From Planctomycetota bacterium (GTDB lineage Bacteria > Planctomycetota > Planctomycetia > Pirellulales > Lacipirellulaceae): 64,000 bases of DNA. The stretch spans positions 32,001 through 96,000 of the forward strand of contig JBCCXZ010000004.1 of NCBI GenBank assembly GCA_039190745.1, given 5' to 3'. Every line of letters begins with the position of its first letter. The stretch's first letter is position 1. The position numbers and the translations under genes were made by a program. The notes beneath the pieces were generated by a model, which saw nothing but the letters and a program-made list of their open reading frames with translations, had not been told where the DNA came from and did no database searches. Below are positions 8,322 through 49,886 of the stretch, one piece after another.

Positions 8322-8351
8322 AGCCACAGGTGGACGCAGATGAACACAGAT
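8322..8351. repeat. CAGAT-type 10-bp periodic arm (right arm degraded)
   Basis: AGCCACAGGTGGACGCAGATGAACACAGAT is nearly identical to the arms at 18689 and 49747; weak partner around 8374-8408. Confidence 0.8.
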
Positions 8352-8447
8352 GCTGTTGCTTGCGTCTCACCCAATAGTGTTCATACGTTTATATATCATG
8401 GAGTGGCCATTTGCTAACCTGCAATCGCCCATCTCGGGGGGTCGCGG

Positions 8448-9200
8448 CTACGCCGCGTCTCGCTGACGGCGGGCGTAGACGGCTTGGGCGAGCTTGCCGC
8501 CGATGAGGCCGAGGAGGGTTGTTGCGAGCCAGCCGCCGATAACAACGAAGCGCTTCGCGTGGAGGATGTAAGGGAACGTGGTGGCGACGCCGTTGGCCTC
8601 CAGAGCGACGATTCCCGACTTGCCGAAGCTCCGCCAGAGCTCTTGGCGGACCACGCCGTCGGCTTTGAGGCCGTTCGCCTCCTGGTAGTCCCTGACGGCC
8701 CGCCGCGTCTGGCTCCCGAAATCACCGTCGACTTCGAGGAGCGGGCTGGTGGAGTGCGCCTCGTTGAGCGCCGCTTGGAGGGCACGCACCGCGGGCCCCG
8801 ACCGAAGGGAGTTGAGCGACGGCATAGGCGTGGTAAACGTCCGGCCGTCGCGGGTGCGGGTGATTTGCGTGGCGGGAGCCTGAGGGCCTGCTCCGATCGA
8901 GGAGGCGTAGAAGGCGTCTTCCAGCAGCACGCGGAGCGGCATGTCGTCGACGTAGGTGAAGGCGAGCCAGTGCAGGATCGCGCCCACGCAGAAGCCGGCG
9001 GCGAAGGCTTGGCGGTAGCCGCGGTCGACGAAGGCAACGACGGCGTAGTAGAGCAGCACGATCAAGACGGCCGCGGCGATGACGTGTTGCCACGCCTCGG
9101 TGTGCTGCATGAGGGCTACGCAGCCCGCGGCGAGGAAGGCGGTGGACGCCAAGAGCGCGCGGAGTGACATACGCAGCGGGTGGGGGGCCTCTTCCATCAT
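8448..9200 (-). CDS. Membrane protein with a peptidoglycan-binding (PG_binding_1-like) domain
   Basis: Three N-terminal TM segments, then GPAVRALQAALN..VDGDFGSQTRRAVRDYQEANGLKADGVV, then a C-terminal TM segment. Confidence 0.8.
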   Translation of the reverse strand: MMEEAPHPLRMSLRALLASTAFLAAGCVALMQHTEAWQHVIAAAVLIVLLYYAVVAFVDRGYRQAFAAGFCVGAILHWLAFTYVDDMPLRVLLEDAFYASSIGAGPQAPATQITRTRDGRTFTTPMPSLNSLRSGPAVRALQAALNEAHSTSPLLEVDGDFGSQTRRAVRDYQEANGLKADGVVRQELWRSFGKSGIVALEANGVATTFPYILHAKRFVVIGGWLATTLLGLIGGKLAQAVYARRQRDAA

Positions 9201-9278
9201 GCGGTCGAGTGTAGCTGGCGATGCCGGAACGCTCCAAGCCATCCGGTCGCCGTCGGGAGCGCGGCGGCGTGAATGGGC

Positions 9279-10259
9279 TCAGGGCCGGCCGTCCGGCCCC
9301 TCGCTCTTGGTCGTCTTTGGCGGGATGAGCCGCATCAGCGCAGGAGCGATCACCGGCAGTAGGCAGAGCGTGATGGCAACGCCGATGACGTTGAAGGCGA
9401 TCTGGGCGTTGGCGATGACGTTCTGGGCGCCCTCGCCGGGGAGGCGTTCGGCCAGCGAGATCAACGGACCAATGAAGAGCAGGCCGCAGACGACCGAGGC
9501 GGCGTTGAAGACGAAGTGGAAGACGCCGGTGCGGACGGCTTCGCGGGAGCGTCCGGCGGTGGCGACGAGCGTGTTGGAGACGGTGCCGATTTCGGCGCCG
9601 AGCATGATGGCCACGCCGGCTGCGGCGGTGACGGCTCCGCTCTCGGCGAGCTTGACCACGATGCCAACGGTGGCCGACGAGGACTGGATGACGACGGTGA
9701 CCAGGGCCCCGCAGAGGGCACCGAGGACGGGGGTCTCGCCGAAGCGTTCGATCCACTCCTGCCAGGCGGGCGTCTGGGCGAGGGGCTCGAGGGTGGCGTC
9801 GAGGCTTTCGAGGGCGAAGAACAGCAAGCCTACGCCGAGCAGGCAGGCGCCAACCTGTTTCACGCGTTTGCCCTTGGCGAGGAACTTCATCAGCAGGCCC
9901 GCGAGCATCAGCAGGGGGCCGAACTGTGTGACGCCCAGGGCGATGACCTTGGCGCCGATAGTGGTGCCGATGTTGGCGCCCATGACGACGCCCAGGGCCT
10001 GGGGGAAGGTCATGGCCCGGGCCTCGACCATGGCGATCACCATGATGATGGTGACCGAGGACGAGTCGAGCACCGTGCAGGCGACGGCGCCGGTGAGGAC
10101 GCCCATCACGGGGTTGGTGGTGAAGCGGTCGATCAGTTTCCGGGCCCGCTCTTCGGCGAGCGACTCGAAGCCCTCGGACATCTGCTCGACGCCCAGGATC
10201 AGCAGCGAGATGCCGGCGAGGACGCCGAGGGCGACCTCGAAGTAGTCGTAGGGGTTCAT
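9279..10259 (-). CDS. Na/Pi cotransporter family protein
   Basis: Duplicated DSSS/QSSS and GANIGTT/GAEIGT motifs; no PhoU domains. Confidence 0.9.
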   Translation of the reverse strand: MNPYDYFEVALGVLAGISLLILGVEQMSEGFESLAEERARKLIDRFTTNPVMGVLTGAVACTVLDSSSVTIIMVIAMVEARAMTFPQALGVVMGANIGTTIGAKVIALGVTQFGPLLMLAGLLMKFLAKGKRVKQVGACLLGVGLLFFALESLDATLEPLAQTPAWQEWIERFGETPVLGALCGALVTVVIQSSSATVGIVVKLAESGAVTAAAGVAIMLGAEIGTVSNTLVATAGRSREAVRTGVFHFVFNAASVVCGLLFIGPLISLAERLPGEGAQNVIANAQIAFNVIGVAITLCLLPVIAPALMRLIPPKTTKSEGPDGRP

Positions 10260-10299
10260 TGTCTTCCCCTCGATTACGCTCGGGGCTCTGGGGCGATTG

Positions 10300-10965
10300 C
10301 TAGTTCTTGAGTTGTTCTTCGAGCCACTCGCTCCACTCCTTGGTAATGGCGGGAGCGGCGAGGACCGATTCGATGGCGGCGGGGTCTCTCTCTTTGCTGG
10401 CGTAGAGCTTGGTGATCGTGGAGACGGGGATGGCGCCCTCGGGGGTGTCGAGGTGCTTGAGGGCGTCGCCGGCTTGGAGTTCGCCTTCTTCGTCGATGGC
10501 GAAGTAGAAGCCGGAGTGGCCGGTGGCGAGCATGTGCTTGAGGACCGACTTGTCGCCTAGGCGGAGCGCGAACTTGGAGCACGGCATGCGCGGCTCGGTG
10601 ACGCGGAGCACGACGCTGCCGCAGCGGTAGCGGGCGCCGATGAGGGCGTCGTCTTCCAGCAGTCCGGTGGTAGTGAGGTTTTCGCCGAAGGCGCCCCAGG
10701 TGAACTCTATGTTGGGGTAGTCAGCTCGCCACTGGTCGTAGTGCTCAGAGGCGAAGCCGTAGATCGCTTTGTCGGGCCCGCCGTGGACGGTGAGGTCGGC
10801 CTGGGCGTCGCCGTGGAGGTTGTGGCCCTCGGCCTTCACGGAGCCCTCGACGGGGGACTTGTAGATGCCGGTGCGGACGGTGCGGCCGTTGTCTTGCACT
10901 TCCCGGACCTGACCGACGTTGACGGAAATGATGGAGGGGGTTGGTTGAGCCATGGTCGGTTCCAT
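10300..10965 (-). CDS. MOSC domain protein (YiiM-like)
   Basis: HGGPDKA, FGENLTT, EPRMPCSK, SGFYF. Confidence 0.9.
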   Translation of the reverse strand: MEPTMAQPTPSIISVNVGQVREVQDNGRTVRTGIYKSPVEGSVKAEGHNLHGDAQADLTVHGGPDKAIYGFASEHYDQWRADYPNIEFTWGAFGENLTTTGLLEDDALIGARYRCGSVVLRVTEPRMPCSKFALRLGDKSVLKHMLATGHSGFYFAIDEEGELQAGDALKHLDTPEGAIPVSTITKLYASKERDPAAIESVLAAPAITKEWSEWLEEQLKN

Positions 10966-10996
10966 CGGCCTCGGAGAGGCGTCCTAGAGGCGGGTG

Positions 10997-17254: not shown

Positions 17255-18691
17255 ATGTCGACCAGCTCGACGATTGTTTGGTTCCGCCAAGACCTGCGCC
17301 TGGCGGACAACCCGGCGCTGCTCCGGGCGGCAGAGTCGGGTTCGGTCGTGCCGGTGTACGTCTGGAGCCCCGAGGAGGAGGGCGACTGGGCCCCCGGCGG
17401 GGCTGGGAAGTGGTGGCTGCACCGGTCGCTCGAGTCGCTCGACGGATCGCTGCGGGAGATAGGTTCGCGGCTGGTGGTGCGTCGGGGCGACTCGCTCCAG
17501 CAGCTCCGGGCCATTGCCGAAGAAACCGGCGCTGAGCGGGTGTTCTGGAACCGGCGTTATGAGCCGCAGGCCATCGAGCGCGACAAACAGATCAAGGCGT
17601 CGCTTGCCGAGGACGGGTTGGGCGTCGAGAGCTTCAACGCGGCGCTGCTGCATGAGCCGTGGACCGTGGCCACGCAACAGGGCCAGCCATACAAGGTGTT
17701 CACGCCGTACTGGCGGGCGTGCCTGAAACAGGACATTCGGCGGGAGCCTCTGTCGAAGCCGAAGACACTCGATGCGCCTGGTTCATGGCCAAAGAGCGTG
17801 GAGCTCGATTCGTTAGCGTTAAACCCCAAGATCGCTTGGGACGCCGGTCTGGCCGAGACGTGGGACGTCGGCGAGGCGGCGGCGATGAAGCGGCTGAGGG
17901 CGTTCGCCAAGCGGGGCATGGCCGACTACGGCGACGAACGGAACCGCATGGACCACGACGGCGTGTCGATGCTCTCGCCCTACCTGCACTGGGGCGAGCT
18001 GAGCCCGCGGCAGGCGTTCGCCGCGGCGGACAAGCTGCGGGAGAAAGACCCCGGCGCGGCGGACGGCGTGAAGGTGTTCCTCAGCGAGATCGGTTGGCGG
18101 GAGTTTAGCTACCACCTGATGTACCACTTCCCCACGGTGGTCGACCAACCGCTGCGGGAGGAGTTCACGCGGTTCGAGTGGGACGACGATCGAGAGGCTT
18201 TGAAACGTTGGCAGCGCGGGCAGACGGGCTTCCCCGTGGTCGACGCGGCGATGCGGCAGCTCTACGCCACCGGCTGGATGCACAACCGGGCGCGGATGAT
18301 CGTGGCGTCGTTCCTCACGAAAGACCTGCTGATTCCCTGGCAGCGGGGCGCGGAGTGGTTTTGGGACACGCTGGTCGACGCCGACCTGGCGAGCAACACG
18401 CAGGGCTGGCAGTGGACGGCCGGCTGCGGGGCGGATGCGTCGCCGTTCTTCCGGGTGTTCAACCCGGTGAGCCAGTCGGAGAAGTTCGACCCGCAGGGGG
18501 ACTACATCCGCCGGTGGGTGCCGGAGCTGGGCGGGCTCGACCGGCCGCACATCTTCCAGCCGCACGAGGCGCCGCCGGGCGTGCTGCGGGCGGCGGGCGT
18601 CGAGTTGGGCAAGGACTACCCGCTGCCGATGGTCGACCACGGTGAGGCCCGGAAGCGGGCGTTGGACGTGTACCAGAGCATGAAGAATTAG
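17255..18691 (+). CDS. phrB: Deoxyribodipyrimidine photolyase
   Basis: WFRQDLRLADNPAL, SMLSPYLHWG, GQTGFPVVDAAMRQL, WMHNRARM, FFRVFNP. Confidence 0.95.
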   Translation: MSTSSTIVWFRQDLRLADNPALLRAAESGSVVPVYVWSPEEEGDWAPGGAGKWWLHRSLESLDGSLREIGSRLVVRRGDSLQQLRAIAEETGAERVFWNRRYEPQAIERDKQIKASLAEDGLGVESFNAALLHEPWTVATQQGQPYKVFTPYWRACLKQDIRREPLSKPKTLDAPGSWPKSVELDSLALNPKIAWDAGLAETWDVGEAAAMKRLRAFAKRGMADYGDERNRMDHDGVSMLSPYLHWGELSPRQAFAAADKLREKDPGAADGVKVFLSEIGWREFSYHLMYHFPTVVDQPLREEFTRFEWDDDREALKRWQRGQTGFPVVDAAMRQLYATGWMHNRARMIVASFLTKDLLIPWQRGAEWFWDTLVDADLASNTQGWQWTAGCGADASPFFRVFNPVSQSEKFDPQGDYIRRWVPELGGLDRPHIFQPHEAPPGVLRAAGVELGKDYPLPMVDHGEARKRALDVYQSMKN

Positions 18692-18769
18692 CCGCAGATG
18701 GACGCAGATAAACGCAGATGATGAACAGGAAGCTCCTTATCTGTGTTCATCTGCGTTCATCTGTGGCTA
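18689..18769. repeat. CAGAT-type periodic inverted-repeat element (31-bp arms)
   Basis: Arms 18689-18719 and 18739-18769 are 27/31 complementary; each has three 10-bp CAGAT units; the terminal TAG and CTA are the stop codons of both flanking genes. Confidence 0.92.
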
Positions 18770-21121
18770 GCTCCAACTAGAAGTACATCGCGACTCTGAG
18801 GAGAGCCGCTGGAGGCTGGTGAGGTCGTCTTCGATCAGCCGGTCGAGTGCGTACATGCCGAGGAAGCCGGCCATGCCCACGCCGCTAGCGATCATCAGGT
18901 ACACCTTCTGGGTGTCGCCGTAGGCCACGACGAGCCAGACGCCGAGCATCGGCACGAGCGTGGCTAGGGCGAGGAAGAAGCGGTTCCAGAACCGGACGGT
19001 GCGGACGTCGGAGGGCTGCGGGCAGCTTGTCGCGTTGTTACGGACCAAAGCCGGGATGAAAGTGTGCACTGCCAGCGTCGTCACGAGGAAGTACGGGTAA
19101 GCTGCTCCGATGCAGCCGCAGAGCACCAGCGACAGTACGAAATGGGTGTAGAAGCCTAGTTGCGACTCGATCGGCAGCCCCCAGTTGATGGCGATGGGGA
19201 ACGCGAGCCCAGCGCCGGTCCACATGACGATGCTCAAGAGCGCAACGAACCGGCCGAAGTGCAGCGCGTGGTGCGAGCCCTCGCCGACCTTGCGGGGGTC
19301 GTCGCTGCGGAGCATGTTCGCCACTTTCCGCGCCCGGCCGACGCCGATGAACATGCTCACGGGGAACACCAGCGCGTTGATCACCAACTGCACCTTCTCG
19401 AACCGGGTGTGCAGCTCGGGCACTTCCTGAACGAGCCAGGCTTCGTTGTAGTGGTAGTTGAAGATTCCGGCGAGGACGTTGGGGACCATCGACGCGACCA
19501 CCACCCACAACAGCGGCAGCAAGAGCGCCACGCCGGCAAACCCGCCCTGGGGCTCCTGCATCAGCTTCCAGCTCGTCGGGTCGAGGCAGAGCCGCAGGGC
19601 CGAGGCCAGCTGCTGGGCGTCCTCGTAGCGGTCGGCCTTTACCGGCTGCAGGCAGCGGACGAGCACCTGGCGGAGCGAGTCGGGGCAGTCGGCGGGCAGT
19701 TTTTTGCAGAGCTCGTTCAAGTTCGCCGTGCGGCGGGCGTCGATCATCCGCTGCAGGCCGGCGAGCGAACCGATCTTGGTCGGCTCGTCCGCAAAAGGAC
19801 GGTCGCCGGTGAGCAATTCCCAGAGCATCACGCCGACGGAGTAGATGTCGCTGGCCTCGCGCACCATGCGGGGCGAGCCGCCCAAGAGCGGGTGGCAGGC
19901 CTCGAGCTGCTCGGGCGACATGTAGGCGAGCGAACCGCCGAACGTATCGGCCGGGTCTTCGCCCACCCGGCCGCCGTTGAAGCTGATGTTGAAGTCCGCC
20001 AGCTTCGGTGAACCCTTCGCCCCTAGCAGGACGTTGGCGGGTTTGACGTCGCGGTGCATGACGCCCTTCTCGTGGGCGTAGGCCAGGCCCTCGGCGAGCT
20101 GAGCGCCGATCTCGCAGACGGCCAGCGGCCAGCTGGCTTCCTTGAACCAGCGCCGCTGGGCGGAACCCTCGGGCGGCGCCTGGCCGCGGCTGCCCAGCTT
20201 GGCGTCGACCACCTCGACCACCAGCCGGCCGGAGCGCTGCTTGACGGGCGTGTTTTTGACCGCCGTGAGCAGGTCGCCCAGCGTGCCGCCGGGCACCACT
20301 TCCATGTAAAGCAGCCGGGCCTGCGGGTCGTCGGCGATGCGTTGGTCGAAAACGCGGACGATATTGGGGTGATCGAGCTGCGCGAGCGTCTGCGGTTCGC
20401 TGCCGGTGTGCGCGGAGATTTTTAAGGCGACCAGCCGCTCCATCGACACCTGCCGGGCGAGGAACACCTTGGCGAAGGCTCCCGAGCCGAGCGGGAGCAT
20501 CAGCTCGAAGTCATCCAACACGTCGCCGGGTTTGAGGTGGTCGTAAGGCTTGTCATCGGCCAGCCGGACGTCGGAGACGTGCGCGGGGCCGTCCTCTGCG
20601 GGGCCGGCGAGCGTGCTGCCGAAGTAAATCTCGGTGGGCGAGCCGGAGACCGCCATGCCGCCGACCATCTGCTGCAGCGCCGCGGCGCGGTCGGGGAACC
20701 GCTGGGTCAGCTCGCGCTCGTTTACCGTGTCGCCCGCCTGCATCCGCACCTGCAGCTCCTCGTAGATCAGTTCGACCGGCAGGGCCTCGACCGGGCCGAG
20801 CTGCGGCAGCTCGGCGGCGTAGGTTTCCAGTTTCTTGGGCTCGTGGGCATTGGACCAGCGGTGCTCAAGGTCGACTTTGATCAGTTCGGGGAGGGCGATC
20901 TGGTCGACTTCTGCCATGCCGGTGAGGTACTCGGCTAGCTGAGGCGGCTCCCCGTCTCCGGCAAGGCAGCCCTCCCAGCGGGCGATGACCGCGTCGAGCT
21001 GTTCGGCGACCCGCTCCCAAGCTTGTTCGGTGTCCGATGGCGCAGCAACCGACGCCTGCGGCTGTGCCCGGGTGGCTTCGTCGCTAGAATAGCGGTCGGA
21101 TTGAGGACCTTCGTTGGTCAT
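18767..21121 (-). CDS. Membrane-bound Hanks-type Ser/Thr protein kinase
   Basis: LGSGAFAKV, VALK, HRDVKPAN, DFN, YMSPE; C-terminal TM helices. Confidence 0.92.
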   Translation of the reverse strand: MTNEGPQSDRYSSDEATRAQPQASVAAPSDTEQAWERVAEQLDAVIARWEGCLAGDGEPPQLAEYLTGMAEVDQIALPELIKVDLEHRWSNAHEPKKLETYAAELPQLGPVEALPVELIYEELQVRMQAGDTVNERELTQRFPDRAAALQQMVGGMAVSGSPTEIYFGSTLAGPAEDGPAHVSDVRLADDKPYDHLKPGDVLDDFELMLPLGSGAFAKVFLARQVSMERLVALKISAHTGSEPQTLAQLDHPNIVRVFDQRIADDPQARLLYMEVVPGGTLGDLLTAVKNTPVKQRSGRLVVEVVDAKLGSRGQAPPEGSAQRRWFKEASWPLAVCEIGAQLAEGLAYAHEKGVMHRDVKPANVLLGAKGSPKLADFNISFNGGRVGEDPADTFGGSLAYMSPEQLEACHPLLGGSPRMVREASDIYSVGVMLWELLTGDRPFADEPTKIGSLAGLQRMIDARRTANLNELCKKLPADCPDSLRQVLVRCLQPVKADRYEDAQQLASALRLCLDPTSWKLMQEPQGGFAGVALLLPLLWVVVASMVPNVLAGIFNYHYNEAWLVQEVPELHTRFEKVQLVINALVFPVSMFIGVGRARKVANMLRSDDPRKVGEGSHHALHFGRFVALLSIVMWTGAGLAFPIAINWGLPIESQLGFYTHFVLSLVLCGCIGAAYPYFLVTTLAVHTFIPALVRNNATSCPQPSDVRTVRFWNRFFLALATLVPMLGVWLVVAYGDTQKVYLMIASGVGMAGFLGMYALDRLIEDDLTSLQRLSSESRCTSSWS

Positions 21122-21208
21122 CTGGATCGGCTTCCGCAGCTCGTTGTCGGCCCCTGATTCCCTCTGGCTCGGTAGTGTAAGCGGGAACAAGGCGCGACGG
21201 GGGCAGGC

Positions 21209-21802
21209 ATGTCTGACCATAATACGCAAATTCTTGAGCGGCTACGATCGGGCGACGAATCCGCCCTGGCGGAGTTCTTGCAGGCCAACGAGCACGCCCT
21301 GCTGGCGTTCCTGCGGAAACGCATCGGCCCGCAGCTTGCCCGGAAGGTTGAGCCGGAGGACGTGCTGCAAGACGCCAGCATGGAGGCGGTCCGCTCGCTG
21401 GAGAAAGTGGACCTCTCGAACTGGGACCCGCTCTCCTGGATGTTCCAGATCTGCGAGCGGAAGATCATCGACGCCCACCGCAAGTTTTTTGTGAGCCAGA
21501 AGCGCGACGCCTCCCGCGAGGCGGCCCTGCCGGACGGCACGGGGGCCCCGGGCATCGCCGACCTGCTGGTGGCGAGCATGACCACGCCGAGCGCCGCCTT
21601 CTCCCGCGACCAGAAGCAGCTCCGCATGCTGGCTGCGATCGACACCCTGCCCGAAGAGCAGCGGGAAGCCTTGCGGCTGCGGTATCTGATCGGGCTGAGC
21701 TCGAAGGAAATCGCGGCCAAGCTGGGGAAGAGCGACGGTGCGGTGCGGGTGATGCTCTCCAGGTCTCTGGCAAAGCTCCAGGTCATGCTGGCCGAAGAGT
21801 AG
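21209..21802 (+). CDS. ECF sigma factor (planctomycete type), divergent from the kinase
   Basis: RSGDESALAE, KVEPEDVLQ, SMTTPS, LPEEQREALRLRY, HTH SSKEIA..AVRVMLSR. Confidence 0.9.
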   Translation: MSDHNTQILERLRSGDESALAEFLQANEHALLAFLRKRIGPQLARKVEPEDVLQDASMEAVRSLEKVDLSNWDPLSWMFQICERKIIDAHRKFFVSQKRDASREAALPDGTGAPGIADLLVASMTTPSAAFSRDQKQLRMLAAIDTLPEEQREALRLRYLIGLSSKEIAAKLGKSDGAVRVMLSRSLAKLQVMLAEE

Positions 21803-21807
21803 GCGGT

Positions 21808-22085
21808 GTCGATTCGGATGAAGGAGATGAGGGGATGTTGGGGATGACGGGGGATGAAGAAGAGCAAGTGGCTTGGATTTAGCATCCTGCGGTAATCAAG
21901 ACGGGATCTCAGCGAGAAATTCCTCCCAGGGTCATTTGCTTGCTTCGTTTCTCTTTCCTTTTCTTTTCTTCATATCTATTCGCAACACTCTCTGCGGTAG
22001 TGGGTCTTCTGTGAAGAAAGAGCATCATCGGCAATATCCCCTCTCCATCTCCAACATCCCCCCATCCCCTTCTCTGCAATCCGGC
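21808..22085. repeat. GGGGAT-type periodic inverted-repeat element with a spacer of about 180 bp
   Basis: Left arm GAAGGAGAT-GAGGGGAT-GTTGGGGAT-GACGGGGGAT (21808-21856); complementary right arm 22036-22085; same family as 27501-27710. Confidence 0.85.
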
Positions 22086-22141
22086 CAGCCTAGCGTATTT
22101 TTCTTGAACCCCTTCTGGGGCTCGGCGGCACTACCGTTAGC

Positions 22142-22657
22142 ATGACCGCCGTGAGCGAATGCGTGCACTTCGACCTGGCCACCCTCGTCCGCGACCATCA
22201 GCAGGCCGTGTGGAGGTACCTGCGCTACCTCGGCGCCGACCCGCCGGACGCGGACGACCTGACGCAGGAGACGTTCCTGGCGGTGGCGCGTTCGGAGTTT
22301 GTGGAGCAGAGCCGGGAACAAACGGCCGGCTACCTCCGCACGGTGGCGAGGAACCAACTGCTGATGGCCCGGCGGAAGGCGGGCCGGCGGATCGCGACGG
22401 TCGACCTGGAGGCGGCCGAGGCGGTGTGGGCCGAGACGCCCTCGGCGGGGACCGACCGGTTCTTGAAGGCCTTAAGCGGGTGCATCGAACAGCTCGAGGG
22501 CCGCTCCCGCGAGGCGGTGCAGCGGTTCTACAAGGACGGCGCCGGGCGGGTGGAGATCGCCGAGGCGCTGGGCATGACGCCCGACGGCGTGAAGACGCTC
22601 CTGCGGCGCACGCGGGACGTGCTGCGGCGTTGCGTCGAGCGGAGTGCGAAGGAATGA
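22142..22657 (+). CDS. ECF sigma factor
   Basis: ADDLTQETFL, YLRTVARN, region 4 EIAEALGMTPDGVKTLLRR. Confidence 0.9.
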   Translation: MTAVSECVHFDLATLVRDHQQAVWRYLRYLGADPPDADDLTQETFLAVARSEFVEQSREQTAGYLRTVARNQLLMARRKAGRRIATVDLEAAEAVWAETPSAGTDRFLKALSGCIEQLEGRSREAVQRFYKDGAGRVEIAEALGMTPDGVKTLLRRTRDVLRRCVERSAKE

Positions 22658-22838
22658 CCACGAAAGGCGCGAAAGGGACAAAAGGAACAAAGTGGGAGGA
22701 TGGAGTGGGAGTGGGAGAAAGAAGATTTGGGAACACTAATCCCCGCTAATCTGCGCTAATCCAGATCAGTGAAGATTAGCGCCGATTAGTGTTCTCTCCT
22801 CTTCTCTTCCTCCGTGCTCTCTGTGCCTCTGTGGTTCA
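22655..22838. repeat. Nested element: outer ACCAC-type ~9-bp periodic arms around an inner CTAAT-type 10-bp periodic palindrome
   Basis: Outer arms 22655-22692 and 22809-22838 (loosely complementary); inner GAACACTAATCCCCGCTAATCTGCGCTAATC / GATCAGTGAAGATTAGCGCCGATTAGTGTTC at 22731-22794. Confidence 0.85.
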
Positions 22839-22856
22839 AAAGAACAAGTGATCGCT

Positions 22857-25301
22857 ATGGCTGAAAACAACGAACAACACGACCCGCAGGAGGAGCTCCG
22901 CGATCGGCTGATCGACGGGGCGCTCGAGGAGCTTGTGGGGGGCGTGGCGCCGCCGGACCTTTCGGAACGGGTCCTCGAGGCGGCCGGCGAAGCGGGGCAG
23001 AACACGGGTGCGGAACGGGTTTCTTTCACCGAACCGGAGGGCAAGAAGATGGCGAGCGTGACGACTGGATCGCGGAGTTGGGGTCGGCCATTGGCGGCTT
23101 TTGCGGTCGCGGCGTGCTTGTTGGTGGCCGTGGGCGTGATGAGCGTGCAGCAGGCGGGCGACGGGGTCGAGAACCGAGAAGTCGCGGGCGGGAAACCGTT
23201 GGTGGAAGAGCCGCAGTCGGGCGATTCGCGCACGTCTCGCCTAGGCAATCCGTTGGGCTCGGTTGCCGTGGAAGCCGAGCAGTTTGCTCAGGAAGCAGAT
23301 GGCGGACTGCGGATGATGGTCGAGCCGCGGATTGTCACCAAGAGTGAGCTGGGGGACGGGCTCGCGGTTGTGGAAGGCAGCGAGGCGGCGCCAGTGGCCG
23401 GGAAGCGTCTCGACTTTTCTGCGTCGGGACCGGTTGAAGAGTCGCTCGTCCGCAAGCAGGCCGAACAAGGCCTCGCCGGCCGAGAGAAAACCTCTGCAGG
23501 CGTCCGATTCCGTGTGGACGAATCCCCCGGCCAGGAACTGACCCGCTATCTGGCAGAGTCTTCTCAGGAACCCGCCGCGGCGTCCGTCGCGGTGCTCGAC
23601 GCGGTTCCGGCATCCCCGCCGCTGCCCGCTTCCTCGGCGGCGCCGTCCTTCGGCGCTCCTCTCAATCAACGCAAGTTCGACGACTCCCGCGTGGCGGGGC
23701 GGACGGCTATGGGCCGACGCATGCAACCCGCGCGTGGCGGCGCGATCACCAGCTTTGAAGGGCGCGACGGAACCGGGTTCTCCTTCGGGTTTCAAGGCGT
23801 GGGCGGCGGCGGTCTGGGCGGCGAGTTCGGCGTCGGTCCTGGCAACTCCGGCGACCAGTACGCCCGGATCCACGACAACCCGTTCAAGGCGATCACGCTC
23901 GGCTCGCCGGACAATCGGCTGAGTACGTTCTCGATCGACGTCGACACCGCGGCGTACGCCAACGTGCGGCAGTTCCTTATGCAGGGGCACACGCTGCCGC
24001 CGGCCGACGCGGTGCGGATCGAGGAGATGATCAACTACTTCGACTACGAGTACAGCGGCCCCACGGGCGACGTGCCGTTCGCGGCGAACATGGAGGTGGC
24101 CTCCTGCCCCTGGCAGCCGAAGCACCGGCTGGTGCGGATCGGGCTGAAGGGCCGCGAGCCGCTCGAAACTCGTCAGCAGAAGCGGAAGAACCTGGTGTTC
24201 CTCGTCGACGTGTCGGGCTCGATGAACCAGCAGAACAAGCTGCCGCTGCTGGTGGACGGCATGAAGATGCTCGCCCGCCAGCTGCACGACGAAGACCAAG
24301 TGGCGATCGTCGTCTACGCCGGCAGCGAGGGGCTCGCCCTGGAGAGCACCCCCGGCAGCCAGCGGCAGAAGATCCTCGACACGCTCGGCAACCTGCGGGC
24401 GGGCGGCTCGACCGCGGGCGGCGCCGGCATCACGCTCGCCTACAAGGTGGCCAAGGACCACTTCATCGAGGGCGGCGTGAACCGCGTGATCCTCGCCACC
24501 GACGGCGACTTCAACGTCGGCACGACCAGCACCGCCGAGCTGGAGCGGCTCGCCGAGACCAAGGCCCGCCAGACCGGCGTGTTCCTCACGGTCCTCGGCT
24601 TCGGCCGCGGCAACCTGAACGACGCGATGATGGAGGCCATCTCCGGCAAGGGCAACGGCAACTACCACTACATCGACGGCCTAACCGAGGCCCGCAAGGT
24701 GCTGGTGCACGAGCTGGAAGCGACGCTGGTCACGATCGCGAAGGACGTAAAGATCCAGGTCGAGTTCAACCCGCAGCACGTCGCCGGCTATCGGCTGATC
24801 GGTTATGAGAACCGCGTCCTGGCCGCCGAAGATTTCAACGACGACAAGAAGGACGCGGGCGAAATCGGCGCCGGGCACACGGTGACGGCGCTCTACGAGA
24901 TCGTCCCGGTGGGCGTCGAAGTAAACGCGGCCGGCGTCGACCCGCTGAAGTACGGGGCGACGAAGAAGCCGGCCCCCGAGGCTTCGGCCGAGATCGAGCC
25001 CAGCCCGGAGATGCTCACGCTGAAGATCCGCTACAAGCAGCCGGACGGCGACACGAGCACGAAGCTAGAGTTCCCGCTGACCGACGGCGAGGCGGAGTTC
25101 AAAGACGCCTCAGTGGACTTCAAGTTCGCCTCGGCCGTGGCCGGCTTCGGCATGCTGCTGCGGGGCTCGGAGCACGCGGGCGACGCAACGCTCGACAGCG
25201 TGCTGCAAATCGCCGAGGAGGGCATGAACCGCGACGAGCACGGCTACCGCACGGAGCTGATGCAGCTCATCAAACGGGCGAAGGAGCTCTCGGGGGAGTA
25301 G
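22857..25301 (+). CDS. YfbK-like von Willebrand factor A protein with an N-terminal TM/anti-sigma-like segment
   Basis: STFSIDVDTAAY, EEMINYF, MIDAS DVSGSM, LATDGDFNVG, YRLIGYENR, AGEIGAGHTVTALYE. Confidence 0.88.
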   Translation: MAENNEQHDPQEELRDRLIDGALEELVGGVAPPDLSERVLEAAGEAGQNTGAERVSFTEPEGKKMASVTTGSRSWGRPLAAFAVAACLLVAVGVMSVQQAGDGVENREVAGGKPLVEEPQSGDSRTSRLGNPLGSVAVEAEQFAQEADGGLRMMVEPRIVTKSELGDGLAVVEGSEAAPVAGKRLDFSASGPVEESLVRKQAEQGLAGREKTSAGVRFRVDESPGQELTRYLAESSQEPAAASVAVLDAVPASPPLPASSAAPSFGAPLNQRKFDDSRVAGRTAMGRRMQPARGGAITSFEGRDGTGFSFGFQGVGGGGLGGEFGVGPGNSGDQYARIHDNPFKAITLGSPDNRLSTFSIDVDTAAYANVRQFLMQGHTLPPADAVRIEEMINYFDYEYSGPTGDVPFAANMEVASCPWQPKHRLVRIGLKGREPLETRQQKRKNLVFLVDVSGSMNQQNKLPLLVDGMKMLARQLHDEDQVAIVVYAGSEGLALESTPGSQRQKILDTLGNLRAGGSTAGGAGITLAYKVAKDHFIEGGVNRVILATDGDFNVGTTSTAELERLAETKARQTGVFLTVLGFGRGNLNDAMMEAISGKGNGNYHYIDGLTEARKVLVHELEATLVTIAKDVKIQVEFNPQHVAGYRLIGYENRVLAAEDFNDDKKDAGEIGAGHTVTALYEIVPVGVEVNAAGVDPLKYGATKKPAPEASAEIEPSPEMLTLKIRYKQPDGDTSTKLEFPLTDGEAEFKDASVDFKFASAVAGFGMLLRGSEHAGDATLDSVLQIAEEGMNRDEHGYRTELMQLIKRAKELSGE

Positions 25302-27500: not shown

Positions 27501-27710
27501 CGAGTCGATTGGAAAAGAAGGGGATGGGGAGATGATGGAGATAGAGGGGGATGAAAGAGAGATAAGATAGCACGGGTTGTAGGAGGCCTCTCTAAGGCCG
27601 ATTCCGTTTTGTGATTGAGACCGATATCGCCCTCAGAGAGGGCTCCTACAGAAGAACTCTATCCCCTTCACCTCCATCATCCCCTTATCTCCTTCCCGTC
27701 AACCGACTCG
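27501..27710. repeat. GGGGAT-type periodic inverted-repeat element enclosing a REP doublet
   Basis: Arms 27501-27552 and 27661-27710 with CGAGTCG/CGACTCG ends. Confidence 0.88.
27578..27650. repeat. GTAG-type REP doublet (REPIN-like)
   Basis: TGTAGGAGGCCTCTCTAAGGCCGAT and its inverted copy ATCGCCCTCAGAGAGGGCTCCTACA match at 22/25; each has an internal palindrome. Confidence 0.85.
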
Positions 27711-28169: not shown

Positions 28170-28198
28170 TCGGTAGGGAATCCGTTCTGCGGTGCTGG

Positions 28199-28365
28199 TT
28201 TAACCACGGAGACACGGAGTGCACGAAGGAGAGAAAAGCTAAGGGATACTAATTGACGCTAATCCTCACTAATCCGGATTAGTGTAGATCAGTGAAGATT
28301 AATGTTCCCTCTAGCAACTTGCTTCTGGTTCTTCTCCACGTTTCCTCCGTGTCTCTGTGGTGAAA
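28199..28365. repeat. Nested element: outer ACCACGGAG arms around an inner CTAAT palindrome
   Basis: Outer TTTAACCACGGAGACACGGAG.. / ..CTCCGTGTCTCTGTGGTGAAA; inner 28242-28310 centred on AATCCGGATT. Confidence 0.9.
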
Positions 28366-28375
28366 CAATCGGGAA

Positions 28376-30232: not shown

Positions 30233-32521
30233 CTAGAGCATGTCTTGCGGGTCGATGTCGACGGTGAGCGTGACCGACTCCGGCGGGTGCCAGGCGTGCA
30301 GCGTGCGGTGCGTCAGGTCGCGGACCGTGTTGATGGCCTCGCCCTGGAGCTGCACCTGATAGCGGTACTCTCCGCGGAGCTTGGGGATCGCTGCGGGGGC
30401 CGGACCCATGACGCGCGTTTCGCTAGCGTCGGCCTTCAGGTTCCCGGCGAGCGCTTTGGCCGACTCGCGGACGACCGCGTTGGCTTCGCCGCGGAGGACG
30501 ATGCGTACCATCGCGCCAAGCGGCGGGTATTTGAGCCGGGCCCGGGCGACGAGTTCCGCCTCCGCGAACCGCGGGAAGTCGTGCCGGGCGGCGGCGACGA
30601 TCGCGGGGTGGTCGGGGCTGAGCGTCTGCACCAGGACGCGGCCGCCACGGTCGCCCCGGCCTGTGCGTCCGGCGACCTGCGCGACCAGTTGGAACGTGCG
30701 CTCCCCGGCGCGGAAGTCGGGCAGGTGCAGCGCCGTGTCGGCATTGATTACGCCCACCAGCGTGACGTTGGGGAAGTCCAAGCCCTTGGCGATCATCTGG
30801 GTGCCGAGCAGGATGTCGATCTCGCCGCGGCGGAATGCGGAGAGCACGCGCTCGTGGGCGCCGGCGCCGCGCATGCTGTCGGTGTCCATCCGGGCGCACT
30901 TGTAGTCGGGGAAACGGGCGCGGACCTCGGCTTCGAGCTTCTGCGTGCCGAGGCCGCCGTAGCGGATGGCGTCCGACTTGCAGTCGGGGCACTTGGTCGG
31001 CGGCTCGGCGCGGTAGTCGCAGTAGTGGCAGAGCGCGGTATTGTCCTGCCGGTGGTAGGTGAGCGACAACTCGCAGTGGGGGCACTCGAGCTTGAACCCG
31101 CACGCGGGGCACTGCACGTGCGTGGAGAAGCCGCGGCGGTTGAGCAGGTAGATTACCTGCCCGCCGTCGCGGAGCGCGGCCTGCGTGGCCTGGTGCAGGG
31201 GCCGACTGATGCCGCCCCGCCCGCCGCGGGCCTGGCCGGGGTCGCGGAGGTCGACGATCGCCACGTCGGGCATAGGGCGATTGGCCACGCGCTTGGGGAG
31301 CGAAAGCTTGCGGTACTCGCCGGTCGAGGCCCGGTGCCAGGACTCCATCGACGGCGTAGCGCTGCCCAGCACGAGCGGCACGCCCTCTCGCGCGGCGCGT
31401 TGCCAGGCGACGTCACGCGCGTGGTAGCGGGGCGAGGTGTCTTGCTTGAAGGTCGCCTCGTGCTCTTCGTCGATAACGATGAGGCCAAGGTTCCTCGCGG
31501 GGGCGAACACCGCGCTGCGGGCGCCGACGACCACCTGCACCTCGCCGCGGAGGATGCACCGCCAGTGGTCGTGCCGCTGCACCTCCGACTGGTGGCTGTG
31601 CAAGACGGCGATGCGGTCGAACCGCGCCCGGAACCGCCGCACGGTCTGCGGGGTGAGGCTGATCTCCGGAACGAGCACGATCGCCTGCCGGCCGTACTCG
31701 ACGACCCGCTGGATGGCTTGCAGGTAGACCTCGGTCTTGCCGCTGCCGGTCACTCCGTGCAGGACGAGCCCGGTCGCCTCGCGGGATTCGAGCGCGGTGT
31801 GGATTTCGTCAAGCGCGGCCTGCTGGTCGAGGTTGAGCTGCAGCGGCCGCTCGCGAGGGACGGCTTCTTCTTCGGCCCGGTCGGTGGCGACACGCTTGGT
31901 CGTTTTCTCCACCAGGCCCTTCTTCAAGAGCTGCGTGACCGGCGCCATGGTGCAGCCGGCCGACTCGGTGAGCCGCACGGCGGTGATCGGCTCCTCGACT
32001 GCGGCGAGCACTTCGACGCACTTCCGCTGCTTGGGCGGCAGCTTGAGCGTCGGTAGCCTCTCGCGGACGTCGAGCGGCAAGGCGAAGAAGGCAACCTCGC
32101 GTGTGCCAACGTTCTGCCGCACTCCCGACGGGAGCACCGCCTCAAGCACCTGCCCCCACGGGCAGAGGTAGTAGCGGCTCATCCAGTGCGTGAGCTCGAG
32201 CATCGCGGGGCTGAGCAGCCGCTCGGCATCGAGCACGGCGGCGACCGACTTCAGCCGCGCCGGGTCGACCCGCTTCACGCCCACTCCGACGCAGTACGCC
32301 GCCCGTCGTCGATTCGCTCGGCCGAAAGGCACGCCGAGTCGTCGGCCCGGTTCGACGAGCTGCTCGAGCCTCGACGGGTCGAGGTTCTGCGGCGGAACGA
32401 GGTAGTCGAACTCGCCGCTGGGGCCGTCGCTCAGCAGCACCGTGGCGACGGTCCGCTCTTGGGCGGCGTCAAGCTCCCACTGCTCGGGCTCGTTGTCGAG
32501 GAAAGACTGCTGCTGGGCCAT
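30233..32521 (-). CDS. priA: Primosomal protein N'
   Basis: GVTGSGKTEVY, DEEH, LGSATPS, four CxxC motifs, GTQMIAKGLDFP, QVAGRTGR. Confidence 0.97.
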   Translation of the reverse strand: MAQQQSFLDNEPEQWELDAAQERTVATVLLSDGPSGEFDYLVPPQNLDPSRLEQLVEPGRRLGVPFGRANRRRAAYCVGVGVKRVDPARLKSVAAVLDAERLLSPAMLELTHWMSRYYLCPWGQVLEAVLPSGVRQNVGTREVAFFALPLDVRERLPTLKLPPKQRKCVEVLAAVEEPITAVRLTESAGCTMAPVTQLLKKGLVEKTTKRVATDRAEEEAVPRERPLQLNLDQQAALDEIHTALESREATGLVLHGVTGSGKTEVYLQAIQRVVEYGRQAIVLVPEISLTPQTVRRFRARFDRIAVLHSHQSEVQRHDHWRCILRGEVQVVVGARSAVFAPARNLGLIVIDEEHEATFKQDTSPRYHARDVAWQRAAREGVPLVLGSATPSMESWHRASTGEYRKLSLPKRVANRPMPDVAIVDLRDPGQARGGRGGISRPLHQATQAALRDGGQVIYLLNRRGFSTHVQCPACGFKLECPHCELSLTYHRQDNTALCHYCDYRAEPPTKCPDCKSDAIRYGGLGTQKLEAEVRARFPDYKCARMDTDSMRGAGAHERVLSAFRRGEIDILLGTQMIAKGLDFPNVTLVGVINADTALHLPDFRAGERTFQLVAQVAGRTGRGDRGGRVLVQTLSPDHPAIVAAARHDFPRFAEAELVARARLKYPPLGAMVRIVLRGEANAVVRESAKALAGNLKADASETRVMGPAPAAIPKLRGEYRYQVQLQGEAINTVRDLTHRTLHAWHPPESVTLTVDIDPQDML

Positions 32522-44626: not shown

Positions 44627-45475
44627 TTACGCGCTGCCCGAGCGTGTTTGGCAGCCCGCGCAGAAGAAGGTCGACCGCTGCGCCTGCACGATCCGCTCAA
44701 TCTCTTGGTCGGGGCAACGGGGGCAGCGGCGGCCGGCTCGGCCGTACACTCGGTGCATGTTCTGGTAGCTGCCGTCCTGGTTCAGCGCATTGCGGTACGT
44801 GCCGTCGCCGAGGGTGGAGCCCTCATACCGCACCGCTTCTTCGAGCACGGCGTGCGTAGCGTCGGCGAGCGCACGCCACTGCGCGGCAGACATAGCGCTG
44901 CACCGCTTGCGGGGGTGGATGCCCGCGAGGTAGAGGATCTCCGCCGCGTAGAGGTTACCGATGCCCGCGACGGCCCGCTGATCGAGCAGCGCTACCTTCA
45001 ATTCGCGTCGGGAGCCCGCGAGCCGCTCGCGGTACTGCTCAGCGGTAATCTCCAGCGCATCGGGCCCCAGGGCGTGCGGGCCGTACTGCTCGGCAAGCTG
45101 CTTCTCAGAAAACAGGCGAACGCTTCCCAGCCCGCGGCGGTCCCAGTACTGGACGGCCTCGTTGGGGCCGGCGTTGAGCAGCATCCGCCAGCGGAGGTGC
45201 TCGCGGGTCGGCGGGTCGACCAGCAACACCAGCCCCGTCATGCGGGGCTCAACCACCACCGCGTCGCCGCTGTCGAGCCAAATAGCCACACGCTTCCCCA
45301 GCCGGGTTAATCGATCCACACGCCGGCCGGTCACCCTCTCGCGGAAGGATGCAAGCCTGGGGGAAATCAGGATCGGCCGCTTCGTGCAGCGGACGTTCTC
45401 CACGCCCTCAACGACAGACCCGACGATCGGCTCGATCCCGCGGCGCATCGTCTCGACTTCGGGCAATTCGGGCAT
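44627..45475 (-). CDS. mutM: Formamidopyrimidine-DNA glycosylase
   Basis: MPELPEVET, RLGK, LGPDAL, GIGNLYA, zinc finger CPRC..CAGCQ. Confidence 0.96.
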   Translation of the reverse strand: MPELPEVETMRRGIEPIVGSVVEGVENVRCTKRPILISPRLASFRERVTGRRVDRLTRLGKRVAIWLDSGDAVVVEPRMTGLVLLVDPPTREHLRWRMLLNAGPNEAVQYWDRRGLGSVRLFSEKQLAEQYGPHALGPDALEITAEQYRERLAGSRRELKVALLDQRAVAGIGNLYAAEILYLAGIHPRKRCSAMSAAQWRALADATHAVLEEAVRYEGSTLGDGTYRNALNQDGSYQNMHRVYGRAGRRCPRCPDQEIERIVQAQRSTFFCAGCQTRSGSA

Positions 45476-45561
45476 ATGAACGCAGTTTTCGCGGGGAGAA
45501 GCCCGCCCTTGATTCGCACTGTTCGGCGGCGGACAATTGAAGGTTTGGAGGCACACGCACC

Positions 45562-46815: not shown

Positions 46816-46855
46816 AACACGCCGAGTCCCAGACAATACACGGAAGCTGAAGTTC

Positions 46856-47050
46856 ATGGTCGTCGGCCCCACTGAGATTGCTATCCTCTCCGGACTGTTG
46901 TTGGCCCTGTACGCGACATCTTGGGTGCAGAGCTCTGTAGTCGCCGCTCTGGAGTGCGTCTTGCTGGTTGGCGTGATCCTGGTTTACATCGGCTCATTCC
47001 TAACCGAGTGTTGTGGTCGTTTGCGACGCGGCAATCCGCACTCTTACTAA
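46856..47050 (+). CDS. Small hydrophobic ORF inserted between trpB and trpA
   Basis: 64 aa with two hydrophobic segments; codon usage less GC3-rich than neighbours; followed 2 bp later by a periodic repeat arm. Confidence 0.5.
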   Translation: MVVGPTEIAILSGLLLALYATSWVQSSVVAALECVLLVGVILVYIGSFLTECCGRLRRGNPHSY

Positions 47051-47052
47051 AG

Positions 47053-47080
47053 CTCTGCGGTCTCCGCGTCTCTGCGCGAG
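47053..47080. repeat. Single 8-9-bp periodic arm (CTCTGCG type)
   Basis: CTCTGCGGT-CTCCGCGT-CTCTGCGCGAG resembles the CTCCGTGT-CTCTGTGGT right arms at 22809 and 28332. Confidence 0.7.
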
Positions 47081-47107
47081 CTCTACCCCATACAGCGACC
47101 AAACACT

Positions 47108-47908: not shown

Positions 47909-48001
47909 TCTGGTTTTTTGCCTAAGCAAGGCCTCTTTCGGGTACAGCCGCTCTATTCGGGTAACCGAAGAAAGAATGTTGCGCTTGGTCGGTCCGTTTG
48001 T

Positions 48002-48031
48002 TTGACCTTGCCAAAATCGGCTAACTAAAAT
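48002..48031 (+). promoter_or_regulatory. Sigma70-like promoter
   Basis: TTGACC-N18-TAAAAT in an AT-rich patch. Confidence 0.55.
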
Positions 48032-48043
48032 TAAGTAGACGGC

Positions 48044-48192
48044 GGCATCGGCGCGGCAGCGCCGACGCCTCCCCCCTCGCGGTGCCCCAGGGGCCGGCGG
48101 ATGGGTTCACCGGTCGGCTCTAAAGGGTCGGCCCAAGCGGCGGCAACACATCCTCCGGCATCAACGGTTTGTTCCGTCCCTCGTGGGCCGCG
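48044..48192 (+). ncRNA. Candidate structured RNA or 5' leader
   Basis: Nested stems 48093-48107/48145-48159, 48078-48092/48178-48192, 48112-48133 and 48044-48069; family not recognised. Confidence 0.3.
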
Positions 48193-48217
48193 GACAGGCT
48201 CCACCCGGAGGTCGCCC

Positions 48218-48772
48218 ATGGCGCCAGAATCCCCGCGGAACGATCCCCATAGACACCGCGAAGAAGTCTTCCGGCGTTTCTTCGCCGGGGTCACCGAGTA
48301 CGCCTTCACCGCCCGGCTCGGGGTGGCCGACCCGCCGCTAGTCGACTACCTCACCTCGATGCTGGTGAGCTTCATCCGCACCGACACGGTGTTCAGCCTC
48401 CGCACGCCGACGGGGGACCGGCTGAACCAAGTGGCCGACATGCTCGCCGAGGCCCAGTCGCGGCAGGGCTCGGCCCGTCGACGCGTGCACCGGCACATCG
48501 GCGACTTCACCCTGTTCTGGACCGGCGTCTACCCCGAGGTGGCTGAGGAGAGCCTCCGCAAGGGGCGCAAAGACGGCCTGATCGACTACCGCCGTCAGGG
48601 CAAGAAGAACTACCTGATCGCTAGCCGCCTGCCGGCCGGCCACAACTCGGCCCCAGACGACGTGCTCGAACGGCTCAGCGAACAGTTCGAGCTGTGCGTC
48701 TACGGCCTCGGCGAGGTCCGCAAGCAATGGGAAGAGCGCGAGGGTGAAGAGGGCGGTTTGCTGCTGGGTTGA
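48218..48772 (+). CDS. Hypothetical protein
   Basis: GGAGG before ATG; LGVADPPLVDYL, HRHIGDFTLFWTGVYPE, FELCVYGL. Confidence 0.8.
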   Translation: MAPESPRNDPHRHREEVFRRFFAGVTEYAFTARLGVADPPLVDYLTSMLVSFIRTDTVFSLRTPTGDRLNQVADMLAEAQSRQGSARRRVHRHIGDFTLFWTGVYPEVAEESLRKGRKDGLIDYRRQGKKNYLIASRLPAGHNSAPDDVLERLSEQFELCVYGLGEVRKQWEEREGEEGGLLLG

Positions 48773-48780
48773 GCCGGGCC

Positions 48781-49707
48781 CTACGTCACCAGCCCCTTCG
48801 TCACGAGCATGAAGACGTCTTCCAGAGTCGGCTCTTTGTCGGCGAACGAGAGTAGCCCGCAGTCGGCGGCGACCAGCTGCTTGAGCAGCCGCTCGATGTC
48901 GGCGTCGCCCCCTTTGATCTCGGCCGTGCAGCCCCGGGGCATCGGCACGACATCGTGCACGTTCGGGTGGCTGCGGATAAGGCTCACGCCCGCCTCGGCG
49001 TCGCCGCGGAAACGGACTTCGATGTGGCGGTTGCGGGTGATCTTCTGGTAAACCTTGTCGATCGGCCCGTGCAGCAGCAGCTTGCCGCGCTCGATGATGC
49101 CGATCGACGTGCAGCAGTCGGCCAGTTCGGTGAGGATGTGACTCGAAATCAGGATGGTCTTGCCCATGCTGCGGAGTTCTTTGAGCAGGGCCTTCACCTC
49201 TAATCGGGCGCGGGGGTCGAGGCCGCTGGCGGGTTCGTCGAGGATCAGCACCGGCGGGTCGTGCACCAGTGTCTTCGCCAGGCAGAGCCGCTGCTTCATG
49301 CCGCGCGAGAGGCCGTTCACAAAGTCGTCGCGCTTGTGCGTGAGGTCGAGCAGCTCGAGCACGTCGGAGAGCACCTGCTTCCGCCGGGCCTTAGGCACTT
49401 GGTACGCCACGGCGAAGAAGTCCAAAAACTCCCACACCTTCATGCCGTCGTACACGCCGAAGTTGTCGGGCATGTAGCCAACGCTCCGCCGCACGCCGAT
49501 GGGGTCGCGGGTGACGCTGTGCCCGTTGACGCGGGCCTCGCCGTGGGTAGCTTGCAGCAGGGTGGCCAAGAAGCGGATGGTGGTGCTCTTGCCGGCGCCG
49601 TTGGGGCCGATGAAGCCGAACATCTCCCCGGCGCCTATCTTGAGGTTCAGGTTCTCCACCGCGGTGAAGTCGCCGTACTGCTTGCCAAAGTTGGAGATCT
49701 CGATCAT
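48781..49707 (-). CDS. ABC transporter ATP-binding protein (ABC-2 type)
   Basis: GPNGAGKST, LSRGMKQR, ILDEP, SSH. Confidence 0.95.
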   Translation of the reverse strand: MIEISNFGKQYGDFTAVENLNLKIGAGEMFGFIGPNGAGKSTTIRFLATLLQATHGEARVNGHSVTRDPIGVRRSVGYMPDNFGVYDGMKVWEFLDFFAVAYQVPKARRKQVLSDVLELLDLTHKRDDFVNGLSRGMKQRLCLAKTLVHDPPVLILDEPASGLDPRARLEVKALLKELRSMGKTILISSHILTELADCCTSIGIIERGKLLLHGPIDKVYQKITRNRHIEVRFRGDAEAGVSLIRSHPNVHDVVPMPRGCTAEIKGGDADIERLLKQLVAADCGLLSFADKEPTLEDVFMLVTKGLVT

Positions 49708-49746
49708 GCGGGCGGGTTGCGGTAATGGTCAGCGGGTTAGGAGAAC

Positions 49747-49886
49747 TAGCCATAGATGGACGCAGATGAACACGGATAAGAAACAAGAAAATGGATAGCC
49801 TGTTTGGCGACCGTCGAGGGAACTAGAAACCCTGTATTCTCTCGTCGATTCACTCATCTGTGTTTATCTGCGTCCATCTGTGACTA
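49747..49886. repeat. CAGAT-type periodic inverted-repeat element (78-bp spacer)
   Basis: TAGCCATAGATGGACGCAGATGAACACGGAT / ATCTGTGTTTATCTGCGTCCATCTGTGACTA, 27/31 complementary. Confidence 0.92.

Follow-up and report, generated by a model that had tools for sequence, protein, structure and literature searches.

What are the inverted pairs of short periodic repeats that lie between the genes of a Planctomycetota bacterium, and which enzyme, if any, places them there? The window, a 64,000-nucleotide stretch of contig JBCCXZ010000004.1 (assembly GCA_039190745.1, 95% complete; positions 32,001 to 96,000, forward strand), contains several families of such elements, each comprising an arm of tandem purine-rich 8–11-bp units facing its complement across a spacer. 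Comparison of this source genome (G000) with a genome of the same genus (G001) and with broader samples indicates that the arm system is real, widespread and apparently undescribed in print, and the best reading of the sequences is that it is likely to be a REPIN–RAYT-like system driven by GxxExxY nucleases; the association of arms with the nuclease is much firmer than the catalytic role proposed for that protein.

Genes framed by arms belong to PF13366 or PF05635. A link between similar arms and GxxExxY genes had been put forward in a preliminary description of the window, and it is borne out in G000, where all six GxxExxY genes (PF13366, PD-(D/E)XK) border arms, each of a different family; three are framed on both sides, one is cut by a contig end, and two have a gene-less doublet on one side. 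The arm family is specific to the nuclease clade: on a tree built for 83 proteins of related genomes (arm labels motif-assigned, a few visibly mis-assigned, many forks unresolved), arm labels need 33 changes as against 63.5 when shuffled, with 0 of 200 shuffles as low. Outside the lineage, in records titled, among others, as Acidobacteria, Proteobacteria, Cyanobacteria, Chloroflexi, Verrucomicrobia and a single archaeon, loci of the GFLEKVYE clade carry a CAGAT-type arm, as in the window, in 68 of 79 cases and a C/E-type arm in none; PGLLES-clade loci carry C/E-type arms in 55 of 80, one of these with a CAGAT-type match on its other side. Among loci with full flanks, 63 of 72 in the GFLEKVYE clade and 49 of 66 in the PGLLES clade have inverted flanks above the shuffle threshold. 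Five IMG/VR contigs (L323–L327) also encode GxxExxY proteins, and all four with full flanks have inverted flanks above that threshold.

The tree pattern alone would arise from co-inheritance too, and dispersed arms were therefore counted across 41 genomes against clade presence, which was scored without the smallest gene fragments and in kin genomes that are not independent. At least five CTAAT matches occur in 7 of 7 genomes with the matching gene and in 6 of 34 without; the corresponding counts are 6 of 7 and 2 of 34 for ACCACGAA, 9 of 11 and 9 of 30 for CAGAT, 4 of 5 and 7 of 36 for CAGGAT, and 2 of 5 and 0 of 36 for GGGGAT. The matched pairing of arms and clades ranks first of 120 permutations (mean area under the curve, AUC, 0.86), and the eight genomes without any GxxExxY match hold at most three arm matches per pattern. 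Arm family and nuclease clade are thus paired, and arm abundance follows the matching clade at the level of whole genomes, with exceptions both ways.

The GxxExxY protein is small (~125 aa), and its model (predicted local distance difference test, pLDDT, 95) is a minimal PD-(D/E)XK domain with best fold matches to lambda exonuclease, Cas4 and the nuclease domain of BpuSI (type IIG), at middling Z scores of up to 8.1; such matches indicate its fold and no function. Within the E..D..ExK motif, the catalytic E, D, E and K are retained in 282, 284, 278 and 285 of 286 rows, and the ratio of nonsynonymous to synonymous substitution (dN/dS) is 0.04–0.06 in 3/3 ortholog pairs; judged from these alignments, the catalytic motif is intact and the gene is under purifying selection. 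Clades recur at home sites across genera, for example one clade before gltD in seven genomes. A PDB sequence search with the protein gave a single match, attributed to chance, and an Atlas search gave GxxExxY clusters only. In G000 the CTAAT-clade gene L006 (G000:C17:35172-35516) is interrupted by a premature TAA, and the G001 copy is intact; both genomes remain rich in CTAAT palindromes.

Within the window, six arm pairs and two lone arms were located, all intergenic, with a CTAAT palindrome nested inside two of the pairs; the family patterns give 8, 5, 3 and 3 matches against 0.00 expected (100 dinucleotide shuffles each). The features are as follows.

8316–8356, plus strand: lone CAGAT-family arm of three units with a 10-bp period, found in G001 too
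18685–18774, unstranded: CAGAT arm pair with a spacer of 8 bp; a GGAGACA 7-mer element occupies the site in G001
21812–22081, unstranded: GGGGAT arm pair with a low-GC spacer of 185 bp, between two ECF sigma genes; kept in G001
22654–22685, plus strand: left arm of ACCACGAAA type that overlaps an ECF sigma gene at its TGA stop; decayed in G001
22725–22800, unstranded: CTAAT palindrome nested within the outer arms; orientation inverted in G001
22807–22840, minus strand: ACCACAGAG-type right arm
27512–27702, unstranded: GGGGAT arm pair with a spacer of 104 bp at the rnhA–recG junction; kept in G001
27577–27651, unstranded: REP-like (repetitive extragenic palindromic) doublet, a separate repeat family, nested in the GGGGAT spacer
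28196–28368, unstranded: ACCACGGAG arm pair upstream of rnhA; G001 retains the arms around an unrelated interior
28246–28311, unstranded: CTAAT palindrome nested in the ACCACGGAG pair; replaced in G001 by a REP-like hairpin and a 7-mer arm
46856–47050, plus strand: 64-codon open reading frame (ORF) between trpB and trpA, without a Pfam match and probably cargo; the G001 site holds a 206-aa SMI1/KNR4 gene
47053–47083, minus strand: lone CTCGCGCAGAG-type arm upstream of trpA and behind the 64-codon ORF, missed by the profiles and found by eye
49743–49887, unstranded: CAGAT arm pair with a spacer of 70 bp; a GGAGACA 7-mer element occupies the site in G001

All elements named in the preliminary description are present at the coordinates it gives, and its account of them as paired holds for most: the arm at 8322 has no partner or, at most, a decayed one near 8377–8410, that at 47053 is alone, as described there, and of CTCGCGCAGAG type, and the pair at 22655 is chimeric, joining a ACCACGAAA-type left arm to a ACCACAGAG-type right arm. 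The nesting that it reported was found again, with the doublet at 27577–27651 (presumably GTAG-type) as an unlisted addition inside the spacer of the element at 27501; the quoted spacer range of 0 to ~180 bp is exceeded genome-wide by gene-carrying spacers, which extend to 400–540 bp. The genes alongside are unremarkable (photolyase, kinase, ECF sigma factors, recG, rnhA, histidine kinase, trpB/trpA and ABC transporter), and the TAG stop of the photolyase gene is supplied by the left CAGAT arm of the pair at 18685. No Rfam family matches the window or eight cassette loci, in agreement with the earlier suggestion that the arms may be undescribed. A non-periodic repeat with core GCGATACGCCAAAAGTC lies just upstream of the 8322 arm (8150–8210) and at many other G000 sites, with 46 profile matches in G000 and 26 in 2.0 Mb of G001; at 18767–25301, a Ser/Thr kinase gene has a vWA/YfbK gene and both ECF sigma genes as neighbours.

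Further copies, as the preliminary description anticipated, are abundant: profiles built from G000 recover 277 arm matches of 11 families there, at 148 loci and in 93 pairs, with each CTAAT palindrome counted twice. A CRISPR array, discounted from the outset, is ruled out by this dispersal of inverted pairs in place of direct repeats with regular unique spacers. Relative to simple gene calls made for this analysis, none of the 251 matches of the 8–11-mer families lies deep inside a gene, upholding the claim of intergenic position; 84 of 113 arm ends facing a gene 3′ end (G000 and 2.0 Mb of G001) fall within −30 to +14 bases of it, and arms near gene 3′ ends often provide the stop codon. Spacers are empty, clustered near 95–110 bp in length, or occupied by a low-GC gene, and resemble one another only in their nested repeats. 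CTAAT palindromes lie inside other arm pairs in 15 of 38 cases, mostly centred and with short linkers. Three other REP-like families are also abundant in G000 (43, 30 and ~88 matches or loci), yet a search of the 95% complete assembly gave no Y1 transposase.

Presence/absence polymorphism between close relatives, an expectation of the earlier account, is evident from the comparison with G001, which covered 2.0 of 4.9 Mb at ~10% divergence. Eight window sites could be compared: four are kept, one of these with its inner palindrome inverted; two CAGAT pairs are replaced by a 7-mer element; at one, the outer arms persist around DNA unrelated to the G000 interior; and the trpB–trpA slot holds a different gene. 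Over 603 orthologous junctions, 529 are armless in both genomes, 25 share a family, five are partly shared and seven hold different families, with arms in G000 only at 11 and in G001 only at 26. Co-occupancy by different families is enriched 13-fold (p=2e-5), and replacement is undercounted, because several of the one-genome-only junctions, among those listed, hold decayed or unprofiled arms. CTAAT palindromes are inverted at two of seven shared sites, three of ten same-family pairs have unrelated interiors, and in four genomes further removed the gltB–gltD, rpoB–rpoC and cysD–cysN slots are taken up by different arm families and cargo. One GxxExxY gene whose slot and arm family are kept has a synonymous divergence (pS) of 0.74 against 0.38 and 0.37 for its neighbours, among the highest of 218 ortholog pairs (median 0.37); as its synonymous sites are saturated, its interior has been replaced by a distant homolog. 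Slots are thus refilled, re-stuffed or inverted between sister species, or are kept or empty. Contigs from sequencing runs offered no usable within-population variation; one run shows a 116-letter replacement at 18673–18766, identical to that in G001.

Several further slots illustrate the range of contents. The window is armless at 45470–45500, and the G001 ortholog (L033) has four layers nested in one another: ACCACGGAG arms, a CAGGAT arm, a REP-like doublet and a GGAGACA arm. Orthologous slots in operons of other genera (L081, L083, L092, L093, L100, L101) contain a four-helix-bundle gene or its pseudogene, a gene pair that is probably HicAB-like, or unrecognised ORFs. Cargo at L446, L452 and L033:14725-15345 includes a DSP-type phosphatase (Tc-R-P), a GNAT protein and an SMI1/KNR4 protein; no Pfam family matches a further five cargo ORFs.

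The mechanism that we favour, at a little better than even confidence, is that the cognate GxxExxY nuclease acts in trans on phased arms and that host repair completes insertion, inversion and interior exchange. The arms of the window would be gene-less copies of those that elsewhere frame GxxExxY genes, one arm family per clade. Several protein copies would bind the 8–11-bp units, about one per helical turn, bring together two arms ~100 bp apart, and introduce a nick or cut either within the arms or at them; break repair by the host would then copy the arm-bounded piece into a gap just behind a stop codon, or swap the interior, so that ends would be ragged and no target duplication would arise. 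For the most part the nuclease gene would remain in a housekeeping operon, at the home site typical of its clade, and act in trans, like RAYTs; that the nuclease is the mobilising enzyme is what we infer from these sequence comparisons. The proposal that the arms are non-autonomous mobile elements keeps its footing in the polymorphism against G001, and its simplest form, cut-and-paste in the manner of miniature inverted-repeat transposable elements (MITEs), is unsupported because no target duplication was found.

A number of observations weigh against this mechanism, besides co-inheritance and the kinship of the genomes sampled. Some unmatched arm–clade pairs also score highly (CAGGAT arms against the GGGGAT clade, AUC 0.91); arms are numerous in several genomes that lack the clade (the CTAAT pattern occurs 138 times in G023, 71 in G002 and 41 in G010); no matching gene was found in the 95% complete G000 assembly for ACCACGGAG, CAGGAT or ACCACAAAG arms; and same-clade duplicates are not depleted (5 against 5.6 shuffled), as examined for one gene per clade. 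The filled and empty sites listed, aligned at ~10% divergence, display ragged replacement, with neither a target duplication, which had been looked for as a mark of insertion, nor a crisp terminus, and there are no near-identical recent copies, spacers sharing nested repeats only.

A parallel class of 7-mer arms is best read as pairing with four-helix-bundle (IVP/Avd-like) genes. The GGAGACA pattern matches G001 25 times and G000 not at all, with no more than three matches in any of 39 other genomes, and a looser profile gives six degenerate matches in G000; a TIGR02436 (four-helix-bundle) gene is framed by GGAGACA arms in G001, with no TIGR02436 match in G000. We know of no catalytic activity for the four-helix-bundle protein, and the copying step may therefore come from another enzyme, a further difficulty for the nuclease mechanism. 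A broader generalisation, decidedly tentative, is that, across phyla, minimal PD-(D/E)XK nucleases each recognise a helically phased repeat code of their own, place arm pairs just after stop codons within housekeeping operons and trade whatever lies between the arms (the nuclease gene itself, genes of immunity-like or toxin-antitoxin kind, or other repeats) like integrase-free cassettes, so forming programmable slots, with four-helix-bundle proteins running a parallel 7-mer code.

Alternatively, the arms may be host-function binding sites (for DNA organisation, regulation or the protection of operon junctions) that the GxxExxY or four-helix protein binds and does not move, with ordinary homologous recombination between the conserved flanking genes and incoming DNA swapping the slots; we think this unlikely. 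It accommodates the constraint on arms in place: at 19 conserved junctions, invariant arm columns differ at 42/791 sites (5.3%) as against 612/3224 (19%) in adjacent DNA, with degenerate arm columns at 22%, a test that is significant even against half the neutral rate, a margin taken for ascertainment, although gene conversion among copies could contribute to the low divergence. The position of slots between conserved operon genes (such as gltB–gltD, rpoB–rpoC, cysD–cysN and trpB–trpA), the ragged replacement boundaries and the like behaviour of the non-catalytic-looking four-helix class also suit it. Flank recombination, however, moves existing alleles and leaves the first colonisation of new sites unexplained, as are the confinement of the GGAGACA expansion to G001 and the centred nesting of the CTAAT palindromes; the intact catalytic motif of the nuclease also counts against it.

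Less probable still, gene-less pairs could be relics of autonomous GxxExxY cassettes whose gene was lost by internal deletion, in MITE-like fashion. The same arms do flank genes and empty pairs, GxxExxY copies are patchy (0–14 per genome, fragments being common), and the five viral-contig matches would fit; yet GxxExxY remnants in 76 short spacers do not rise above shuffles, the genes recur at clade-specific home sites, spacer lengths cluster as described, and arms are constrained even without a gene.

That the arms act as RNA, pairing in the operon transcript and looping out cargo for excision or processing as in ORF-bearing 23S rRNA intervening sequences, appears very unlikely. Of 126 arm-bearing junctions in G000, 101 lie between co-oriented genes, arm pairs are predicted to fold at −47 to −110 kcal/mol, and the four-helix family of arm-framed genes is the 23S rRNA IVP family. 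Against this, sense-strand mismatches in gene-bearing loci display no excess of G-U over A-C (177 vs 201; 275 vs 246), gene-less pairs have the opposite bias (G-U 84, A-C 132, p=0.001), and arms are no nearer to their own partners (41.1) than to other arms (43.0), in tests that covered the 8–11-mer class and barely sampled the 7-mer class. Across 40 gene-bearing loci, upstream and downstream arms share one profile, with fixed and degenerate positions recurring every 10 bp. Constraint and periodicity together fit the phased protein-binding sites first suggested for the window, favouring, as far as sequence can speak, repeated protein-binding sites over a selected RNA stem. Between co-oriented genes, mismatches in GGGGAT pairs tend to be A in the upstream arm and G in the downstream one (only one column significant), hinting at left/right polarity relative to transcription.

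Hitchhiking with REPINs, moved by RAYT or another host transposase, is highly improbable: 24 of 119 REP-like loci (counted with a loose pattern) lie inside arm pairs, whose spacers are ~1.5% of intergenic DNA, but the 95% complete G000 assembly gave no match to the Y1 transposase (PF01797), most pairs contain no REP, and specificity follows the GxxExxY clade.

Among described systems, the available portions of two reports (bioRxiv 10.1101/2021.07.10.451892, 10.1101/2024.10.14.618302) present REPIN–RAYT elements as extragenic, ~100 bp long and conserved at both inverted ends, with a spacer that varies, forming several populations per genome, each with its own enzyme gene at a stable site and with repeats scarce where the gene is missing. 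So far as those portions allow, the arm system shares the size, the layout and the several populations, and resembles them, with exceptions, in gene dependence. It differs in that arm ends are tandem purine-rich units and REPIN ends short palindromes of ~14 bp (the nested doublet at 27577 is the one window element whose ends are palindromic), in its PD-(D/E)XK partner in place of a HUH/tyrosine (Y1) transposase, in its archaeal record within the sample, and in slots that house and swap cargo genes as well as repeats of other families. The six different clades in G000, the home sites and the co-occurrence would fit one stable gene per population, but three arm families have no gene found in G000 and same-clade duplicates are not depleted; with neither the defining end structure nor the enzyme matched, the arms are not REP/RAYT proper. 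TIRtrons, in the part of the account at hand, likewise have an enzyme gene (TIRYT) flanked by long inverted repeats that are also found as dispersed dimers; TIRYTs, however, are tyrosine transposases, and no periodic arms or GxxExxY link are described in that part (PMC3733652). The family entry for PDDEXK_3/GxxExxY (PF13366, TIGR04256), to which the arm partner belongs, gives its function as unknown with multiple transfers and, in the section available, mentions neither flanking repeats nor a role (PMC3424549). One other published mention of GxxExxY, in the excerpt obtained, concerns a Cas4-adjacent gene. Full-text searches, whose coverage excluded subscription papers and supplements, found no published description of the arm–nuclease system.

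MITEs and other non-autonomous elements derived from insertion sequences (IS) are short, have inverted ends and no transposase, and are mobilised in trans. In the arms, neither target duplications nor sharp termini were seen among the sites listed, at ~10% divergence; they also differ in being degenerate at fixed positions and in their unrelated interiors; a MITE or IS derivative with copies similar over their whole length was rejected, since spacers share nested repeats only. For the inverted 7-mer arrays, the comparison class is ORF-bearing 23S rRNA intervening sequences and cyanobacterial STRR heptamers, with which they share, in relatives, a four-helix-bundle gene inside the array; arm elements, in contrast to the intervening sequences, sit in protein operons, and RNA-pairing tests were negative for the 8–11-mer class.

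For PF13366 and PF05635, widespread families of unknown function, these results supply a predicted, clade-specific DNA target, and the slots show a route by which small accessory genes pass into and out of core operons. If the nuclease spreads the arms, the system would be an unrelated counterpart of the REPIN–RAYT repeats, and REPIN-like persistence would have arisen two or more times from unrelated enzymes; a nuclease of 125 residues whose sequence specificities form a natural series would then also be of interest for the study of protein–DNA recognition.

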